The notes beneath the pieces were generated by a model. It had not been told where the DNA came from and made no database searches. It saw only the letters and a list, made by a program, of their open reading frames with translations. Positions 5,597 to 60,464 of a stretch of 64,000 nucleotides of DNA are shown here, piece by piece. Every line of letters begins with the position of its first letter. The stretch's first letter is position 1. The position numbers were made by a program, and so were the translations under genes. Source of the stretch: Clostridia bacterium (lineage in GTDB: Bacteria; Bacillota; Clostridia; Christensenellales; UBA1242); NCBI GenBank assembly GCA_045594425.1, contig JAZNYK010000003.1, positions 2,929 through 66,928 on the forward strand, read 5' to 3'.

Positions 5597-7078
5597 ATGG
5601 AAAAAACAACAAAAACAACAAAAACAAAAAAGGCAACAATTGAAATTAAAAAGAAAGTTTTATTTGTTGCTTCTGAAGCCCAACCTTTTTGTGCTACAGG
5701 CGGACTCGCTGACGTTTGCGGAAGTCTTCCAAAAGAAATAAAAAGAGAAGACCCATCAGTGGATATCAGAACAATCATTCCACTTTACAGCAACATTCCA
5801 GCGTGCTTTAGAAAAGACTTCAAGTTCATTGGTCACACTTATGTTACACTCTCTTGGAGAAAAGAATATTGTGGTGTGTTTGAATATGACTATGAAGGCG
5901 TAAAATATTATTTTATTGATAACGAAAAATATTTCAAACGTGACGGTGGTGAATATGGTTACTTTGATGATTGTGAAAGATTTGCTTTCTTTGCAAGAGC
6001 AGTGTTAGACATTCTTCCAATCATTGATTTCTTCCCAAATATCTTGCACGTTAACGATTGGCAATCAGCAATGATTCCAGTATATCTTAAAACCATTGGT
6101 TGGTCAGATGAAAGATATGGTGCAATCAAAACAATCTTGCAAATCCACAACATTCAATATCAAGGCAGATATGGCACACAAGTTATCGGTGACGTTTTAG
6201 GTTTAAGCGAAAAAGACGCAAGCCTTGTAACATATGATAACGACTGTAATATTTTGAAAGGCGCTATTGTAACTGCTGACAAAATCATCACTGTTAGTCC
6301 AACATATGCTGAAGAAATCAAAACACCTGAACACAGCAACGGACTTCATGAAATCGTAAAACAAAATGCTTATAAACTTCGTGGTATTTTGAATGGCCTT
6401 GACTATTCATTCTATAATCCAGAAACTGATAAAGTTATTTACACAAATTATTCAGTTGGAAACATGGATAACAAAGCAAAAAATAAAGAATTATTACAAA
6501 AAGAAATGGGTCTTGAAGTTACCCCAGACAAACCAATCATTGCATTCTGCTCAAGAATGAATGTTACAAAAGGTTTTGACCTTGTAAAAAGTTGTATTGA
6601 AAACCTCATCAACGAACTTGATATTCAATTTGTTGGGGTTGGTTCTGGTGACAGAGAATACACAGACTTCTTTAACTATCTTAACAACAAATATCCAAGC
6701 AAAGTTCATGTAACTCTTGGATACAGCCTTGAAATTGGCAAAAAGATTTATTCAGGTTCAGATATTTACATCATGCCATCAATCACAGAGCCTTGTGGTC
6801 TTTCACAAATTGTAGCAAGCCGTTATGGTGTTGTTCCAATTGTTAGAGAAGTTGGTGGTTTGAAAGATACAATCAAAGACTTTGGTTGTGAAGGTGGCGG
6901 AAATGGCTACACTTTCACAAATGCTTTTGTTAGCGACCTTGAATATTCAATCAGAAGAGCAGTTGAAGACTTTAAAGATAAAGAAGGCTGGGCTAAAAAG
7001 ATTGAAACCGTTATGACAATTGACTTTAGTTGGAATAAAACAGCAAAAGAATACATTGAAACTTATAATGAATTATAG
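5597..7078 (+). CDS. glgA: Glycogen synthase (ADP-glucose type, GT5)
   Basis: VLFVASEAQPFCATGGLADVCGSLPKE (KTGGL-type motif) and a C-terminal GT-B region SITEPCGLSQIVASRYG. SD AGGAGAAG. Confidence 0.9.
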   Translation: MEKTTKTTKTKKATIEIKKKVLFVASEAQPFCATGGLADVCGSLPKEIKREDPSVDIRTIIPLYSNIPACFRKDFKFIGHTYVTLSWRKEYCGVFEYDYEGVKYYFIDNEKYFKRDGGEYGYFDDCERFAFFARAVLDILPIIDFFPNILHVNDWQSAMIPVYLKTIGWSDERYGAIKTILQIHNIQYQGRYGTQVIGDVLGLSEKDASLVTYDNDCNILKGAIVTADKIITVSPTYAEEIKTPEHSNGLHEIVKQNAYKLRGILNGLDYSFYNPETDKVIYTNYSVGNMDNKAKNKELLQKEMGLEVTPDKPIIAFCSRMNVTKGFDLVKSCIENLINELDIQFVGVGSGDREYTDFFNYLNNKYPSKVHVTLGYSLEIGKKIYSGSDIYIMPSITEPCGLSQIVASRYGVVPIVREVGGLKDTIKDFGCEGGGNGYTFTNAFVSDLEYSIRRAVEDFKDKEGWAKKIETVMTIDFSWNKTAKEYIETYNEL

Positions 7079-54029: not shown

Positions 54030-55238
54030 ATGGCAAAAGCAAAATTTGAATCTAAAAAACCTCACGTTAACATTGGTACAATCGGCCACGTTGACCACGG
54101 TAAAACAACTTTAACTGCTGCAATCACAATGAATCAAACACACAAATATGGTGGTGATGCTAAAGATTACAGCCAAATCGACTCTGCTCCAGAAGAAAGA
54201 GCAAGAGGTATCACAATCAACACAGCACACGTTGAATATGAAACAGACAACAGACACTATGCACACGTTGACTGCCCAGGACACGCTGACTACGTTAAGA
54301 ACATGATTACTGGTGCTGCTCAAATGGACGGTGCTATCCTTGTTTGTGCTGCAACTGATGGTGTTATGCCTCAAACTCGTGAACACATCCTTCTTGCTCG
54401 TCAAGTAGGCGTTCCAAAAATTGTTGTATTCATGAACAAAATTGACCAACTTGGTGGCGACACAGAACTTGCTGACCTTGTTGAAATGGAAATCAGAGAA
54501 CTCCTTTCAAAATACGAATATGATGGAGACAACACTCCAATCGTTCGTGGTTCTGCATTCCTTGCTCTTGAAGCAGCTAAAGCAGGCAACTATGATTCAG
54601 AAGATACAAAATGCATCGCTGAACTTATGGATGCAGTTGACTCTTGGATTCCAACTCCAGACCGTGCTACAGACCAACCATTCCTTATGCCAGTTGAAGA
54701 CGTATTCACAATCACTGGTCGTGGTACTGTTGTTACTGGTAGAGTTGAAAGAGGTGTTCTTAAAACTGGTGAAACAGTTGAAATCGTAGGTCTTGAAGAT
54801 AAGCCAAAGACTTCAGTTGTTACTGGTATCGAAATGTTCAGAAAAACTCTTGATGAAGCCGTTGCAGGTTACAACGTAGGTGTTCTTCTTAGAGGTATCG
54901 ACAGAACTGAAGTTCAAAGAGGTCAAATCCTTTCTAAACCAGGAACTGTTCATCCACACACAAACTTTGAAGCACAAGTTTACGTATTGACAAAAGAAGA
55001 AGGTGGTCGTCACACTGCATTCTTCAACAACTATCGTCCACAATTCTACTTCAGAACAACTGACGTTACAGGTTCAATCGCTCTTCCAGAAGGAACAGAA
55101 ATGGTTATGCCTGGTGACCACACAAAGATGACTGTAGAACTCATCTCTCCAGTTGCTATTGAAGAAGGACTTCGTTTCGCTATCCGTGAAGGTGGCAGAA
55201 CTGTAGGTTCTGGTGTTGTTTCTAAAATTATTAAATAA
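54030..55238 (+). CDS. tuf: Elongation factor Tu
   Basis: [10 protein letters not shown] and DCPGHADY. 402 aa. Confidence 0.96.
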
Positions 55239-55266
55239 TTTTAAACAAAACTAAATCTTTAAATTA

Positions 55267-55300
55267 AAACACTTTGCTATTTAGCAGGGTGTTTTTTTGT
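55267..55300 (+). terminator. Rho-independent terminator after tuf
   Basis: AACACTTTGCTA-TT-TAGCAGGGTGTT (with G-U pairs) followed by TTTTTTT. Confidence 0.8.
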
Positions 55301-55340: not shown

Positions 55341-55368
55341 TTGATAAATTGTTTTTTATTGTTACAAT
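55341..55368 (+). promoter_or_regulatory. Putative promoter of cassette 1
   Basis: TTGATA-16 nt-TACAAT. Confidence 0.5.
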
Positions 55369-55397
55369 AAAATTAATAAAATATTAAGGTGATAATT

Positions 55398-56306
55398 ATG
55401 ACAGCAAAAGTAGAAGTTCCAAAAAAGAGAAGAGTTGAAGGTTTAATAGGATTTGGAAAAGCCAAAGATGTTGTTAGTAGTTTGATAGTTTCTGCAGGCG
55501 CGATAATGACCCATTCGGCTTATGATGATGCAATGGCACAATTTGATGTGGCTAAAGTTTATGCAAAAGGCGCGGCTGCTCATGTTCAAACAAGAGCAAA
55601 AACTATAATTGGTTCTGAAGAAGAAAGACAAATCGCAAAAGAACAAATTACTGAAATGGATGTTCGAAAAGCGGTTTTTCAAAAAACATTAAACATTCTT
55701 GGTTGGTCTGAAGACCAGTATAAGACTTTGATGGATGACAGAAATTATATCAGAGCACAAAAACAGCAAAAACCTCAAAAACCTGAATCTGAAGCAGAAG
55801 AAATGAAAAACCTTATGGATGATTTTCATAGGTCAAACGAAAGAACAAAAGACAACATGAAGGAAGCAGGAAAAGAGTTATTGGGTCTTGTGGAATATAT
55901 TCCTGCGGTTGCCGCACTTGCAATAAATCCAGCTATTGGTATTTCTATAGCGGTTGTTGTTACTGGGATTAAAATGATTGGCCATTATCGAGAAGGTAAA
56001 AAATTGGAAGCAGAAGCAACTAGGCGTGGTGGCAACTATGCGGATAAAATTATGAATTTTGCTGATAAACTTGTAAAACTTGAAGAACTTTTAGATACGA
56101 AAATGAATGGAATAATTGAAAAATATAAAGGCAGAGAGAATGATGCTGAATTTACAGCAGAACTCGACACAATTATTCGTAGTGCGGCTGCAGAAGTTGG
56201 ATTAGGTGTGAGTGATGCCAAGACTGTATCTAAAATAATTCCTAAAAAGGAAACAGTGCAAGATAAACTTGCAAGCAAGGTTGAAGTTGGTTCAATTAAG
56301 GATTAA
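55398..56306 (+). CDS. Hypothetical helical protein A1 (302 aa) with a central hydrophobic hairpin
   Basis: Start moved to ATG 55398. Residues about 161-196 read LLGLVEYIPAVAALAINPAIGISIAVVVTGIKMIGH, two short hydrophobic helices split by NP. Charged helical regions flank them. No signal peptide. Confidence 0.65.
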   Translation: MTAKVEVPKKRRVEGLIGFGKAKDVVSSLIVSAGAIMTHSAYDDAMAQFDVAKVYAKGAAAHVQTRAKTIIGSEEERQIAKEQITEMDVRKAVFQKTLNILGWSEDQYKTLMDDRNYIRAQKQQKPQKPESEAEEMKNLMDDFHRSNERTKDNMKEAGKELLGLVEYIPAVAALAINPAIGISIAVVVTGIKMIGHYREGKKLEAEATRRGGNYADKIMNFADKLVKLEELLDTKMNGIIEKYKGRENDAEFTAELDTIIRSAAAEVGLGVSDAKTVSKIIPKKETVQDKLASKVEVGSIKD

Positions 56307-56317
56307 TGGGGTGAAAT

Positions 56318-56593
56318 ATGAGTATTGGTTTTGTAGCGAAAAAGGGTGAAATGATGCTCTTGGAAGGCGGTGAAGCATACATCGTGATTGACCAAATTGC
56401 TTTTGAGGGTGAAAATTATTTGTTGATAAAAAAGGTTACTGATAGTTTGACGGATTACATGGACTTAAAAAAAGAGGTTTCTTTTGTTCGTGAAGTCATT
56501 GAAAATGAAACAGATTATTCAGTTGAAACCGTTACAAGCAAAACTCTTTTAAAGAGTTTATTTGATGAAGCAAAGAAAAAAGTGCAAAAGTAA
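56318..56593 (+). CDS. Small DUF1292-like protein B1 (91 aa)
   Basis: Sits 11 nt after A1 with SD GGGGTGAAA. YIVIDQIAFEGENYLLIKKV...SFVREVIENETDYSVETV fits the DUF1292 pattern (y.v...fe.eg..Y.ll.p...v.i.r...e.e..le.i.d). Confidence 0.6.
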   Translation: MSIGFVAKKGEMMLLEGGEAYIVIDQIAFEGENYLLIKKVTDSLTDYMDLKKEVSFVREVIENETDYSVETVTSKTLLKSLFDEAKKKVQK

Positions 56594-56596
56594 TGC

Positions 56597-56627
56597 AAAA
56601 CAGCGCCATTTGGTGCTGTTTTTTGTT
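56597..56627 (+). terminator. Rho-independent terminator
   Basis: AACAGCGCC-ATTT-GGTGCTGTT followed by TTTTT. Confidence 0.8.
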
Positions 56628-56697
56628 GGAAAACATATCAAATTATGTGTATAATTGAAAATGTAAACTAAAATTTATTAATCAAAAGAGGTTGATT

Positions 56698-57663
56698 ATG
56701 GCTAAACATAAAGTGGAAAGCATTGTTTCAGTTGATGAATTATTAGAGCAACTTGGAAGTGGGCTTTCAAAAGAGGAATATTCAAAATTTGCGGTTCAAG
56801 TGAAAAAGATGCTAGAGGAAAATAAAAGTGAAACAAACACAAACACTGTTGTTGCTCAAGCAAAAACACTTAAGACTGAAAGCAAATTAAGTGCAAAAGA
56901 ACAAGCAAAAGAAGATGACAGATTTAATCGTATCAGACAAAGATTGATTGAAGAAGTTTTTGGTGTGTCTGCAAAAGACCAAGAGAAACTTATGGAACAA
57001 GGCGAGCAAGCATCTAAACTTTTGGCTGATGGTGCAAGGTCTGATTATCAAACTGTTAAGGATAAAGAAAATGTTTTGGGTGCTGCTGAAACAGCCGACA
57101 AAAAGGCTAGAAGAGAACTTCTTGCGGGTTCACTTGACGTGGCTCTTGCAATTGGTGGTCTTGCTTCTGAACAAATTGCTGGATTGGTTGCTACAATCAC
57201 AGGTGTGTCGGTTGCTTTTCCAGTGATTGGTGCGGCTTTAACAACTTTTGTATTTGGTGTTAAACTTGCAAAATATATCAAAGCATCAAAACAAAGCAAA
57301 AGTGACATTGCTTCAAAAAAAGAAGATTTTTTGAAAGATGTTGCAGAATTAACACAAAGAATCAAAGTGTTTAGTGATATGCTTGAGTCTAAAAAAGCAG
57401 AGATTCTTGCAGAGTCTAAAAAATGCAAAAGCAAAGAAGAGTTTAATAATTTCATTAAAGGTAAGGCACAAGAAATTTCTGAACTTATTCAAGCAAAGGG
57501 CAGTGAACTTGGAATTGATAATGTAGAAGAAATGGACTTAAAGAAACTTACTGAAGAGTATGATATGCAAAAACAAAATGAAATCACCAAGCGTGCGTCT
57601 ATTGAATCAAGACACAAAGAAGAACATAAAAGTAGCATTGGGGAAGAAGAAAGAAGTCTATAG
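56698..57663 (+). CDS. Hypothetical helical protein A2 (321 aa), distant paralog of A1
   Basis: Start moved to ATG 56698, which follows AAGAGG. Residues about 141-192 read LLAGSLDVALAIGGLASEQIAGLVATITGVSVAFPVIGAALTTFVFGVKLAK. Architecture matches A1, and both hairpins are preceded by (K/R)ELL. Confidence 0.65.
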   Translation: MAKHKVESIVSVDELLEQLGSGLSKEEYSKFAVQVKKMLEENKSETNTNTVVAQAKTLKTESKLSAKEQAKEDDRFNRIRQRLIEEVFGVSAKDQEKLMEQGEQASKLLADGARSDYQTVKDKENVLGAAETADKKARRELLAGSLDVALAIGGLASEQIAGLVATITGVSVAFPVIGAALTTFVFGVKLAKYIKASKQSKSDIASKKEDFLKDVAELTQRIKVFSDMLESKKAEILAESKKCKSKEEFNNFIKGKAQEISELIQAKGSELGIDNVEEMDLKKLTEEYDMQKQNEITKRASIESRHKEEHKSSIGEEERSL

Positions 57664-57705
57664 ATAAAATTGAATTATTAAAAAATTAAAACAGGGGAAT
57701 AAATT

Positions 57706-57972
57706 ATGAATTTTGTTAGTAAAGTTGGAGATGTTTTGCATCTTGCTGATATTGAAACTGTTTATCAAGTTGCAAAGTGTTTTGAATTTGAAGGTGAAAA
57801 CTATATTTTGGCAGTTTCTGTTCCAGAAAAATTTGAAGAATTGTTTGATGATTCAAAGAAAACTATAGAAATTTTCAGAGAAGTTGTTGAAGATAATGAC
57901 GAGTTTTTTGTTGAATCAATTGAAGATAGTGTGCTTCTTTCAAAACTTAAAGACTATGTAAAAACATTATAA
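57706..57972 (+). CDS. Small DUF1292-like protein B2 (88 aa), paralog of B1
   Basis: Shares FEGENY(L/I)L, FREV(I/V)E(N/D), VE(T/S) and LL(K/S)(S/K)L with B1. SD AGGGGAATAAA. Confidence 0.6.
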   Translation: MNFVSKVGDVLHLADIETVYQVAKCFEFEGENYILAVSVPEKFEELFDDSKKTIEIFREVVEDNDEFFVESIEDSVLLSKLKDYVKTL

Positions 57973-58000
57973 AAAAGGGCGAGAGCCCTTTCTTTTTGTT
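57973..58000 (+). terminator. Rho-independent terminator
   Basis: AAGGGC-GAGA-GCCCTT followed by TCTTTTTGTTT. Confidence 0.8.
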
Positions 58001-58010
58001 TGCTATGGTA

Positions 58011-58045: not shown

Positions 58046-59467
58046 ATGAACATTAAATATAGAGAAAGTTTAAACGAACAAATTAGAAAATTTATAGCAA
58101 TTGGCGAGTGGGATGAAAAACCTCGTTTTACTGACATCAAAAGAACAATAACAGTTGGTGCCAGTATGTTTTATACTGCAATTGCAAAAACTGATGGAAG
58201 ATATGGTGTTAAAGCGGGTGATTTGGTTTATTTTAAGAAAAACCCAACACGTGGCGTAAACCCAAATAATGCTAGAACTGATGAAGCCAGAGGAAGTTGT
58301 GAAGATATTGGTGAAGTTTTAACACACTTTACAGTTAAAGCCATGAATGAAAAACTTGGTGATGATGCTGTTTTTGAAGTTACACCTTATGACTTTGCCG
58401 AATATGAAGACGATATTTTTTGGTCGGCTATTGCAAAAGAAACATCGGCTCTTGTAAAAAGTAAAAGAATTTATGGTTGTATGTCACCAAACTGTATTGA
58501 CCCTAATGGTGAAATTATTCACGGAAACACTTTAATAAGGTGTTTAATGCCAAATGTAAAATCAATCAGAAGTGATGATAACACTTTATACAACTATCAA
58601 ATGGCAAGTCTTGCATATGCAGAGCAAGCAAAAGAAAAAGGTCAAGAAGTATTAATCCATCCAAAGAATGCTAGGGCAGACTTCGTTGAACTTATGGTTG
58701 ACTTTATGGGTGGCAATAGCGACAGACACTGCAAGAACAGAACAAAACAAATTATAAAACTTCCTGATGGAAGGGCTGTTTTGGTTAATACTACTGGTCT
58801 TGATAACGGTGGTGTTTTGGGTCTTCAGAGCACAAATTGTTATAATTTGTTTATGAATCAATATCAAAAATTAATGGAAAAAGGGAAACTTCTTCCTTTT
58901 GAAGAACATTCAGGATTTATTGACCGCTCACCATTCAATCAATATTTTGACTTTACTATTGGTGCTGAATGTTTCAAAGATAAACGAATTGCAAATGCTT
59001 ATCAAAATTTGTCTTATGAAGAACAAATTGTTGCACTTGTCAGTCAAAACAAAATTTTGTTTAATGATTTAAAAAATGTGTATCAACATTTTGATTATGA
59101 TGCTGGTGCAAGGTTAATGAAAAAACACGTTAAGTTTAATTATTTAACATCTGATGAAATCGAACGTCTTGAAGGTTTGGGAAGAACAGTTGACCATGTC
59201 AATGGTTCACATCTCCCAGGTATGCATTTAGTTGCAGCGGCTCAACTTGAAATGAAGCGTGAAATGTTAAGCAGAGCAATGGCAAATGTTATGGGTGTTG
59301 CGTTTGATGAAGAATTATTCAAGCAAAACAAGATGTATTATGTTGATATGTTTGAACCTTATGTTAAAGAAAATGAACTAACTATTCACATTGCTTCAAA
59401 TGCAGAAATCAAAACCTTCGACAAGCAAATTGAAGAAATAAAACAAAGTGCAAAACAAAAACAATAA
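58046..59467 (+). CDS. HipA-like (HipT-like) Ser/Thr kinase-fold protein lacking the HipA N-subdomain, with a roughly 170-aa C-terminal helical extension
   Basis: ADFVELMVDFMGGNSDRHCKNRTKQIIKLPDGRAVLVNTTGLDNGG aligns with E. coli HipA FQWLIGATDGHAKNFSVFIQAGGSYRLTPFYDIIS (catalytic D-x-H-x-K-N plus a distal Asp). ITVGASMFYTAI aligns with the HipA P-loop ISVAGAQEKTAL but lacks QEK. Confidence 0.5.
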   Translation: MNIKYRESLNEQIRKFIAIGEWDEKPRFTDIKRTITVGASMFYTAIAKTDGRYGVKAGDLVYFKKNPTRGVNPNNARTDEARGSCEDIGEVLTHFTVKAMNEKLGDDAVFEVTPYDFAEYEDDIFWSAIAKETSALVKSKRIYGCMSPNCIDPNGEIIHGNTLIRCLMPNVKSIRSDDNTLYNYQMASLAYAEQAKEKGQEVLIHPKNARADFVELMVDFMGGNSDRHCKNRTKQIIKLPDGRAVLVNTTGLDNGGVLGLQSTNCYNLFMNQYQKLMEKGKLLPFEEHSGFIDRSPFNQYFDFTIGAECFKDKRIANAYQNLSYEEQIVALVSQNKILFNDLKNVYQHFDYDAGARLMKKHVKFNYLTSDEIERLEGLGRTVDHVNGSHLPGMHLVAAAQLEMKREMLSRAMANVMGVAFDEELFKQNKMYYVDMFEPYVKENELTIHIASNAEIKTFDKQIEEIKQSAKQKQ

Positions 59468-59479
59468 TTGGAGTTTATT

Positions 59480-59797
59480 ATGAAAGTTATTAAAGTTTGT
59501 TACAAAGATATTGTGCTTGGAAAACTCACCTTTCAAGAGGGTGTTTATTGCTATGAGGCGTCAAAAATAGGCGTTGACAAGGCATACAAAAAAGGTTACA
59601 CAACATTTGTTTATGATTGCGACCAAAGTTTTGTTAGTGACACATTGCCGGCTGCATTCCAAGATTTGATTTCCGAAGAAATAGTTGCAAATATTTCTTC
59701 GTTAACAGAGATTTTGGAAACCGACACAGAGTTTGATGTGCTTTATAAATTTGCGGCTTTAGATGTTGGCAAACCAGATTTCCATGTTGAAATTTAA
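59480..59797 (+). CDS. HipS-like protein (stand-alone HipA N-terminal subdomain, about 105 aa)
   Basis: IKVCYKDIVLGKLTFQEGVYCYE, TLPAAFQDLISEE and EFDVLYKFAALDVGKPDF align with HipA LVTWMNNQRVGELTKLANGAHTFKY, FNFFDNLLPDS and PFDLLSEIGRDSVGAV. Start moved to ATG 59480, which follows TTGGAG. Confidence 0.55.
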   Translation: MKVIKVCYKDIVLGKLTFQEGVYCYEASKIGVDKAYKKGYTTFVYDCDQSFVSDTLPAAFQDLISEEIVANISSLTEILETDTEFDVLYKFAALDVGKPDFHVEI

Positions 59798-59804
59798 AAA
59801 ATTT

Positions 59805-59835
59805 ACCCCGCCTCACAAAAAGGCGGGTTTTTTGT
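59805..59835 (+). terminator. Rho-independent terminator
   Basis: CCCGCCT-CACAAAA-AGGCGGG followed by TTTTTT. Confidence 0.85.
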
Positions 59836-59900
59836 TTGCTAAATTTTAAAAACATAATATAATGTATATGGACAAAATTAAAATATCTGCAGGTGAATAA

Positions 59901-60155
59901 ATGAATCTTAAGAAGGCAGTTGCCGAAAGACTTTCACAAATTTTAAGAGAAAGAAGTTTAACTCAATATGCACTATATAAAATTTCCGGCGTGCCACAAA
60001 GCACAATAAGCACAATTTTAAACGGTGACATAAAAACAATCAAGTTAAGCACACTTCACGATATATGCGTGGGGCTGGGCATAAATCTTTCAGATTTCTT
60101 TGCCACAGATTCACTAAAAAATCATAGTTTAAAAAACCAACACGAAACCGATTAG
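59901..60155 (+). CDS. Small XRE-family HTH protein (84 aa)
   Basis: RLSQILRERSLTQYALYKISGVPQSTISTILNGDIKTIKLSTLHDICVGLGINLSDFF is a Cro/C1 HTH. SD AGGTGAATAA. Confidence 0.75.
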   Translation: MNLKKAVAERLSQILRERSLTQYALYKISGVPQSTISTILNGDIKTIKLSTLHDICVGLGINLSDFFATDSLKNHSLKNQHETD

Positions 60156-60168
60156 TGTTGGTTTTTTG
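60135..60168 (+). terminator. Rho-independent terminator overlapping the HTH gene stop codon
   Basis: AACCAACAC...GTGTTGGTT followed by TTTT. Confidence 0.8.
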
Positions 60169-60464
60169 TTTGCTTTAAAATTTAAACCAAAAACGTCAAA
60201 AAGTTTAAATGTTTTGCATGAAAATTTTTGAAAATTATTGACACTATTTGACATTCATGTTATCATAATATAGCATACCATAATTATCATCATAAGTATG
60301 CCCTTTTGGGCGATAGTTATGGTTTTATAAGTCAATTGTGTAGATATTAACATAATTTTGTCCTTTTTATTTGTTTAATATGGAATCGACTATCTTTTGG
60401 CTTCGCTAGAAATTTGTGCTTATTATCAAAAATGACTCTTTTTAATATTTTTTGGGAGGACTAC

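Follow-up and report, generated by a model that had tools for sequence, protein, structure and literature searches.

Helical proteins built around a single hydrophobic hairpin are known from several systems. The ClyA family of pore-forming toxins (ClyA/HlyE, XaxAB/YaxAB, AhlABC/SmhABC, Hbl/Nhe) includes tripartite toxins encoded by tandem, barely similar paralogues, and its Gram-positive Hbl and Nhe components carry Sec signals. Related designs occur in the pore domains of colicins, Bcl-2 and diphtheria toxin, and in chlamydial Inc proteins, the two-transmembrane (2TM) effectors of cyclic oligonucleotide-based anti-phage signalling systems (CBASS) and RexB-type proteins. DUF1292 (UPF0473, the B. 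subtilis YrzB type) is a family of small acidic cytosolic proteins found across Bacillota, the canonical genes of which adjoin ruvX in a housekeeping operon. Here a locus is described in which proteins resembling both kinds meet. It lies directly downstream of tuf in a 64,000-nucleotide stretch of contig JAZNYK010000003.1 from a Clostridia bacterium (the window) and consists of a two-gene cassette in two copies, A1-B1 and A2-B2. The A genes encode helical proteins with a central hydrophobic hairpin and the B genes small acidic proteins that resemble DUF1292.

The A proteins match the ClyA family in general design, namely their size (250–390 aa), all-helical content and single central hydrophobic hairpin, and also in the very low identity of their tandem paralogues. 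With the colicin, Bcl-2 and diphtheria toxin pore domains they share an uncharged, Gly/Ala-rich hairpin of ~35–45 aa flanked by amphipathic charged helices, and with the Inc, 2TM and RexB-type proteins a bilobed hydrophobic hairpin whose two flanks would lie on one side of the membrane. The likeness to 2TM defence effectors extends to location, as the A-B pairs occupy an accessory island beside a candidate defence module. The B proteins are, like those of DUF1292, ~85–96 aa long, acidic and cytosolic, and align over nearly the full model. They differ in standing beside a hairpin protein instead of ruvX and in scoring at or below the Pfam cut-off. Helical membrane proteins that are anchored by a hairpin and accompanied by a small cytosolic protein are a general kind already known, and no new mechanism is demonstrated. 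The locus is an uncharacterised two-gene module, present in two diverged tandem copies and restricted to a narrow clade of uncultured gut Clostridia.

A gene pair in two diverged copies

A1 and A2 are strongly diverged homologues. Aligned directly, they share 19% identity (E=8e-6) over 120 aa that take in the hairpin and C-terminal half. When A1-type and window-lineage sequences are left out of the family profile, it nevertheless recovers A1 at 55.5 bits (E=4e-16), with A2 at 162 bits, hence the homology is not a chance match. A1 is the fast-diverging copy of the two, and its homologues at 85–100% identity are 302 aa long. B1 and B2 share 35% identity (E=3e-12). The ratio of nonsynonymous to synonymous substitution rates (dN/dS), calculated against two related contigs, is 0.13–0.31 for A1 and 0.11–0.15 for the first 275 codons of A2; against related contigs it is 0.06–0.11 for B1 and 0.06–0.16 for B2. 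Purifying selection across all four genes (0.06–0.31) and their conserved homologues rule out chance open reading frames (ORFs). Starts were taken as the ATGs that follow Shine-Dalgarno sequences. Every one of the four genes has such an ATG, that of A1 lying 5 nt after the ribosome-binding site (RBS) AAGGTGA.

Searched exhaustively with HMMER against 1.84 billion representative proteins, the A1+A2 profile returned 41 clusters at E≤1e-3, 12 of them at E≤1e-10. This search was needed to reveal the family, as a word-indexed homologue search reached A relatives only at 84% identity or more. Members are 240–390 aa long and share, from N- to C-terminus, V.GIIP.E, a helix with F.KIR..L....FG.S, D.L.D..NV..GQ.GSNK, the hairpin, K..KGN.AD..EK.R.Y and KKK.MSKKEF. 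Charged residues mark their N-termini, as in MAKHKVESIV and MTAKVEVPKKRR. A central uncharged hydrophobic region is present in all 49 aligned members and spans 23–57 aa in 48 of them. P0086 is the lone member with a second, N-terminal hydrophobic stretch, which distorted its automated measurement. Across the alignment the hairpin reaches a Kyte-Doolittle 19-residue maximum of 1.6–2.6, lies at aa 110–200 of 250–390, turns at a central Pro or Gly, is rich in Gly, Ala and Ser, and is followed directly by net positive charge. In A1, where it is the sole hydrophobic region, it consists of two ~16-residue arms about an Asn-Pro turn with a maximum of 2.27. In A2 the core is preceded by the Gly/Ala-rich segment LLAGSLDVALAIGGLASE and the maximum is 2.04. 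The A family is small, clade-restricted and real, with a universal central hairpin.

This family has no relative in the curated libraries or solved structures searched. No significant match to A was found in Pfam, NCBIfam, PHROGs or PADLOC. Searching PDB sequences with single proteins or with family profiles yielded no match under E=0.07, and no Foldseek match to the A2 model in PDB or BFVD fell below E=0.25. An earlier note on the window, made from its letters without database searches, had likewise been unable to place either protein in a described family. Scans of GTDB, IMG/VR and the JGI metagenomes used a motif from a sub-alignment as a single degenerate pattern and were hence insensitive. 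They matched two of 185,579 GTDB species representatives, both Clostridia metagenome-assembled genomes (MAGs), with no match in IMG/VR or the JGI metagenomes. A2 and B2 had no tblastn match among 50,697 phage and 72,556 plasmid records. Carriage as phage or plasmid cargo thus has no support from the phage, plasmid or IMG/VR collections.

The B proteins have no hydrophobic segment and a low isoelectric point (pI 4.3–4.9). The earlier note had assigned them to the DUF1292 pattern, and the likeness stands at the threshold of the family: B2 scores 23.8 bits against PF06949, just under the gathering cut-off of 24 (E=8.5e-5, model positions 5–72 of 75), and B1 has no Pfam match. Ten of 14 diverse B proteins match DUF1292 at E<1, with a best value of 1.4e-5, which is threshold-level, and the B of locus L018 carries a precomputed weak match. 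Such scores are consistent with a diverged DUF1292 subfamily. The B profile retrieved no PDB sequence below E=0.1, PADLOC and PHROGs contained no match to B, and a word-indexed search returned mostly near-identical copies plus P0052 at 55% identity. The literature searched on DUF1292, UPF0473, yrzB and the PADLOC entry PDC-M03 contained no functional study.

Pairing of the two genes is strict. In the 14 independent loci read that hold an A-family member, a B-profile search finds a B homologue directly 3' of A wherever there is downstream sequence. The gap between the two genes is 1–42 nt (13 pairs), which makes translational coupling and equimolar synthesis likely. L001–L006 are close relatives of the window with the same gene order. 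A single pair is present in each of L010, L011, L012, L013, L014 and L017–L020, of which L011 and L012 are two GTDB Clostridia MAGs, and L015/16 has one pair with an interrupted B. L009 has two B genes, and of its A genes one is complete and the other cut. In L007 there are three B genes, two of them with a complete gene in the A position, while the contig end cuts the first A.

The grouping of these sequences dates the duplication relative to the lineages. The nearest relatives of B2 are the B genes that end the arrays of L007 (56%) and L009 (52%). B1 has its nearest relative in L009_B0 (45%), itself grouped with L007_B0 (52%), and A2 groups with L009_A1 and L007_A2. As the B1 and B2 types are each closer to relatives on other contigs than to each other, the pair was duplicated as a unit before the lineages split. 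Most of what the earlier note had read from the letters is confirmed by these results: the two-gene cassette is tandemly duplicated, and the duplication is old and maintained. The adjacency of A and B is kept in all related loci examined, and all four genes are under purifying selection. The four ORFs lie at the positions it named and the hydrophobic segments and FEGENYLL/FEGENYIL motifs are present as quoted. Its second B motif, FREVIEN, needs correction, as B1 reads FVREVIEN.

Two loci depart from the common form. In the B gene of L015 (2774–3031) and L016 (2772–3029) an in-frame TAA stands exactly where the FEGENY motif has its conserved Tyr (FETQE*VILM). The stop is identical in two samples, and the gene may be a recent pseudogene or contain a recoded stop. 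In L007 the gene in the A position between two B genes (399–1658) encodes a 420-aa protein with a hydrophobic segment and the His run HHHHESH. This protein is not detected by the A-family profile and may be an extremely diverged or a replaced A.

Layout, signals and surroundings

The gene order in the window is rpsL, rpsG, fusA, tuf, A1, B1, A2, B2, with all four cassette genes on the plus strand. The encoded EF-Tu belongs to a protein cluster in which the named members come from Clostridiales MAGs. Three further genes follow B2, giving a seven-gene island between tuf and rpoB, an arrangement that is unusual among bacteria. The intrinsic terminator of tuf sets the cassette apart from the str operon. 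Positions of the genes and signals are listed in the table.

Table. Position, strand and properties of the cassette, its signals and the genes on either side of it, numbered from the first letter of the window
Feature	Position	Strand	Properties
tuf	54030–55238		directly 5' of the cassette
tuf intrinsic terminator	55266–55295	+	13-bp stem then T run; -14.7 kcal/mol, z -4.3
Unit 1 promoter-like site	55341–55368	+	TTGATA, 16 nt, TG-n-TACAAT; 10/12 matches
A1	55398–56306	+	302 aa, all-helical, 32% charged residues, pI 8.4; strongly diverged paralogue
A1 hydrophobic hairpin	55878–55988	+	aa 161–197, LLGLVEYIPAVAALAINPAIGISIAVVVTGIKMIGHY
B1	56318–56593	+	91 aa, pI 4.85; starts 11 nt after A1
B1 terminator hairpin	56597–56622	+	-17 kcal/mol, z -4.0; 0 shuffles fold as well
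Unit 2 promoter-like site	56626–56655	+	TTGGAA, 18 nt, TG-n-TATAAT; 10/12 matches
A2	56698–57663	+	321 aa, family-typical paralogue; RBS AGAGG before ATG
A2 hydrophobic hairpin core	57172–57279	+	aa 159–194, QIAGLVATITGVSVAFPVIGAALTTFVFGVKLAKYI
B2	57706–57972	+	88 aa, pI 4.27, charge -12; starts 42 nt after A2
Bidirectional terminator closing unit 2	57974–57991	both	-10.8 kcal/mol, z -2.8
Context 3' of the cassette, not shown to be part of it	58046–60155	+	473-aa HipA-like, 109-aa and 84-aa XRE-type helix-turn-helix (HTH) proteins
rpoB	starts ~60265		~110 nt after the HTH gene; runs off the window end

Each A-B pair forms a unit with its own promoter-like element and terminator, as had been noted earlier, and both promoter-like sites are invariant in relatives. 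The -10 element of unit 1 lies inside a perfect 8-3-8 palindrome of 19 nt, TTTTATTGTTACAATAAAA (55354–55372), which could be an operator. A 37-nt stretch at the unit 1 promoter-like site is invariant in L001, L003 and L004, for which coding synonymous divergence (dS) from the window is 0.4–0.6. Unit 2 keeps its -35 and the TGTGTATAAT element unchanged in L001 and L003. The B1 terminator, which a pattern scan overlooked and folding found, is also kept in those two loci. Promoter-like sites as such show no excess in this AT-rich region, with 20 found versus 18.1 expected from shuffles. The invariance of both promoter-like sites, the B1 terminator and the palindrome, despite synonymous divergence of 0.2–0.7 in the adjoining genes, is however read here as a footprint of function. 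A search for a shared operator among the promoter regions of the island turned up only the terminator tail TTTTGTTTGCT and AT-rich palindromes.

That tail recurs as an 11–12-mer, TTTTGTTTGCT(A/T), just 3' of three successive module terminators (57993–58004, 59829–59840 and 60163–60174). The copies close the B2, 109-aa and HTH gene modules, and a similar sequence, TTTTTTGTTGG, lies 3' of B1. These repeats may be mere terminator tails or a trace of module joining.

The 473-aa protein downstream of B2 is HipA-like by eye, with a GGNSDRHCKN motif, and weakly matches PDC-M03A (2.4e-6) of PDC-M03, a candidate defence system in PADLOC. The 109-aa protein weakly matches PDC-M03B (2.8e-3), and neither protein of this pair has a Pfam or PDB match. 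Together they look like a split HipA-like kinase module. The 84-aa XRE-type protein matches HTH_26 at 9.5e-13. The kinase-like pair also stands beside A-B in L007, at 46% identity, and in the distant L018, where the kinase is 42% and A only ~21% identical. An XRE-type HTH gene adjoins the module in five lineages, namely the window, L007, L009, L019 and L020.

The position of the module is only partly conserved. It lies just upstream of rpoB as two pairs in the window and as one pair in L013 and L019, the latter with the HTH gene. Elsewhere single pairs follow pnp (L014) or an rdgB-like gene (L017), precede pflB (L015), or lie close to dtd (L011) or to yvcK and ndk (L012). With its variable copy number, fast divergence of paralogues and changing location, the pair behaves as an accessory island module.

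Topology and possible roles

Neither A1 nor A2 has an N-terminal signal-like hydrophobic segment, and the sole hydrophobic region is central in 48 of 49 family members. An AlphaFold2 model of A2 from a 49-sequence alignment is all-helical and of medium quality, with a mean predicted local distance difference test (pLDDT) score of 66. Confidence is high at residues 70–100 and 210–270 (pLDDT 81–94) and falls below 50 at residues 134–191, which cover the hairpin and the preceding helix. The A1 model, from nine sequences, is unusable (pLDDT 43.7). The lack of a signal peptide, the basic residues flanking the hairpin, the conserved polar motifs on both sides of it and the confidently modelled unit of N- and C-side helices point to cytoplasmic termini. 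In this predicted topology the hairpin would be in, or partly in, the membrane.

A would then be a membrane protein without a signal peptide, held in the cytoplasmic membrane by a proline-kinked, Gly/Ala/Ser-rich helical hairpin. Its charged helical N- and C-terminal halves would both be cytoplasmic and pack together, joining D.L.D..NV..GQ.GSNK and K..KGN.AD..EK.R.Y at the inner surface of the membrane. B, as a small acidic cytosolic protein of putative DUF1292 fold made from the same mRNA, would be the binding partner of A and serve as its regulator or adaptor. The gene arrangement suggests this binding. The strict pairing offers a testable hypothesis for the role of the DUF1292 fold, which may be to bind and control a hairpin-anchored helical membrane protein.

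In the reading tentatively preferred here, A would act on the membrane as a regulated effector and B would be either its inhibitor or its sensor, in a system of defence, abortive-infection or toxin-antitoxin-like character. This reading draws on the accessory behaviour of the module, its autonomous and apparently repressible promoters, the company of the HipA-like pair and XRE-type gene, and the small-residue hairpin. Hairpins of this kind are typical of oligomerising membrane helices. A more specific form, which is rather unlikely as stated, has A turned against its producer: A would oligomerise through the hairpin and depolarise or remodel the producer's own membrane, and the cognate DUF1292-fold protein would restrain or trigger it. 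Should that be true, the pair would represent a new defence or toxin-antitoxin family in uncultured gut Clostridia. It would also give the widespread DUF1292 fold its first functional role, as a regulator of helical membrane proteins.

Several observations weigh against an effector. The hairpin arms of A1 and A2 have only ~15–18 strictly hydrophobic residues, so that the hairpin could equally be monotopic, re-entrant or shielded instead of spanning the membrane twice. No link of A or B to mobile elements or known defence systems emerged from the phage, plasmid, IMG/VR, PADLOC or PHROGs searches, and against PADLOC-DB 2.0 none of A1, B1, A2 and B2 had a match at E≤0.1. The genes show purifying selection of the ordinary type and no trace of an arms race. 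The site between tuf and rpoB would also fit a constitutive cell-biological role, as would the housekeeping setting of canonical DUF1292 genes beside ruvX. Linkage to the kinase-like pair occurs in 3 of 14 independent loci and is possibly inherited synteny. Finally, a crude mirror-tree test of A-B co-divergence over 13 pairs gave no signal (Mantel r=0.07).

Some of these points also fit a constitutive role, in which A is a hairpin-anchored coiled-coil scaffold of the envelope, division or sporulation, B is its adaptor and the paralogues have become sub-functionalised. This account is only a little less probable than the effector and is the strongest of the alternatives. A membrane anchor joined to long charged helices is a suitable architecture for a scaffold, and steady purifying selection, the strong-looking and conserved promoter, the position upstream of rpoB kept in several related contigs, the canonical DUF1292 genes in housekeeping operons and the lack of a phage or plasmid link all agree with it. 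However, housekeeping scaffolds are usually single-copy and syntenic, whereas this module is present in one, two or at least three copies at what appears to be the same locus. Its locations vary among other lineages and its distribution is very narrow and patchy. The 19% identity of the A paralogues and the B copy with an in-frame stop in two samples are also difficult to reconcile with such a role. If A is a scaffold, it would mark a clade-specific envelope structure.

It is considerably less probable that one larger system comprises the A-B pairs together with the kinase-like, 109-aa and HTH genes, with A-B as effectors or sensors of a HipA-type kinase module. The kinase-like pair does follow A-B in the window lineage, L007 and the distant L018, and the HTH gene recurs beside A-B even where the kinase is missing (L009, L019). 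Yet a terminator and a separate promoter-like site stand between B2 and the kinase gene in the window, and a 226-aa gene is intercalated in L018. In most loci (L009–L015, L017, L019, L020) A-B occurs without the kinase pair.

The likeness to pore-forming toxins, which the earlier note had raised, has no support from the profile and fold searches. In the reading of A as a ClyA/Hbl/XaxAB-like multi-component or colicin-like toxin, the hairpin would stay hidden in the helical bundle until a target membrane is reached, with B acting as chaperone or immunity protein. Besides the shared design, the tandem, barely similar A paralogues resemble tripartite toxin arrays, and the best Foldseek and hmmsearch matches include chains of XaxB, AhlC, SmhB and Tc toxins. 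None of these matches is significant, and they amount to noise (E 0.8–8.7, TM ~0.1). With the A2 model, whose mean pLDDT is 66 and whose hairpin is below 50, Foldseek gives E=1.6 for XaxB, 8.3 for AhlC and 8.7 for SmhB in the PDB, and the PDB profile search places SmhB at E=2.5. Pfam HlyE and Bacillus_HBL are matched by neither A1 nor A2 (E≤1) nor by any of 44 family members (E≤0.1), and the hhalign comparison of the family with E. coli ClyA has a probability of 0.65%. A differs from the ClyA family in lacking a profile or profile-profile match, and also a fold match with this model of medium quality, so that a fold relationship may yet exist.

Other features of A also separate it from exported toxins. 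Unlike the Sec-exported Hbl and Nhe components, A has no signal peptide, and no secretion or lysis gene lies near the cassette. Each A gene is interleaved with one for a small cytosolic partner, which is not the case in the ClyA family, and the conserved basic motifs beside the hairpin suggest a resident inner-membrane topology. The colicin comparison fares no better, as Pfam Colicin is absent from A1, A2 and the 44 members. Colicin immunity proteins are integral to the membrane, whereas B is soluble and acidic with 88–91 aa. One A member has a sub-threshold Diphtheria_T match (1.1e-3), and AlphaFold2 does not confidently bury the hairpin of A. As no testable defining feature was clearly found, a secreted ClyA- or colicin-like toxin is very improbable.

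The comparison with chlamydial Inc proteins, also made in the earlier note, fails in turn: there is no IncA Pfam match, the hydrophobic domain of Inc proteins is N-terminal whereas the A hairpin is central, and Clostridia are not known to have type III secretion. From the 2TM defence effectors A differs in having no PADLOC match and no nucleotide-sensing or other known sensor domain. PspA_IM30 and Snf7 are absent among the 25 listed of the 66 families matched by the 44 A members, and a PspA/IM30/ESCRT-III fold is absent among the top 50 Foldseek matches in PDB and in BFVD.

Other genes beside the module

Related loci contain further genes next to A-B. An uncharacterised coiled-coil family of 226–232 aa, with a C-terminal RFNARMxKHK-like motif, adjoins the pair in two distant lineages, L018 (1517–2197, one copy) and L020/21 (L020 1315–2010 and 2038–2736, two copies), and has no copy in the window. 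A convergent ORF of 71–79 aa lies directly after B on the minus strand in L010 (1331–1552) and L013 (3405–3620). Its pattern, YFNYHAK...ISPALVL.FD...MPIR.H, is conserved in these two loci and has no Pfam match.

In L012, from the Clostridiales MAG SVHI01, a 157-aa coiled-coil protein is encoded 3 kb upstream of A-B on the minus strand (6506–6979). It is unrelated to A by sequence and has a Gly/Ala-rich hairpin of its own. The contigs of L001–L005, which come from different samples, all begin 130–200 nt upstream of A1, at the end of tuf. Perhaps these assemblies break there because tuf is duplicated or shared between strains.

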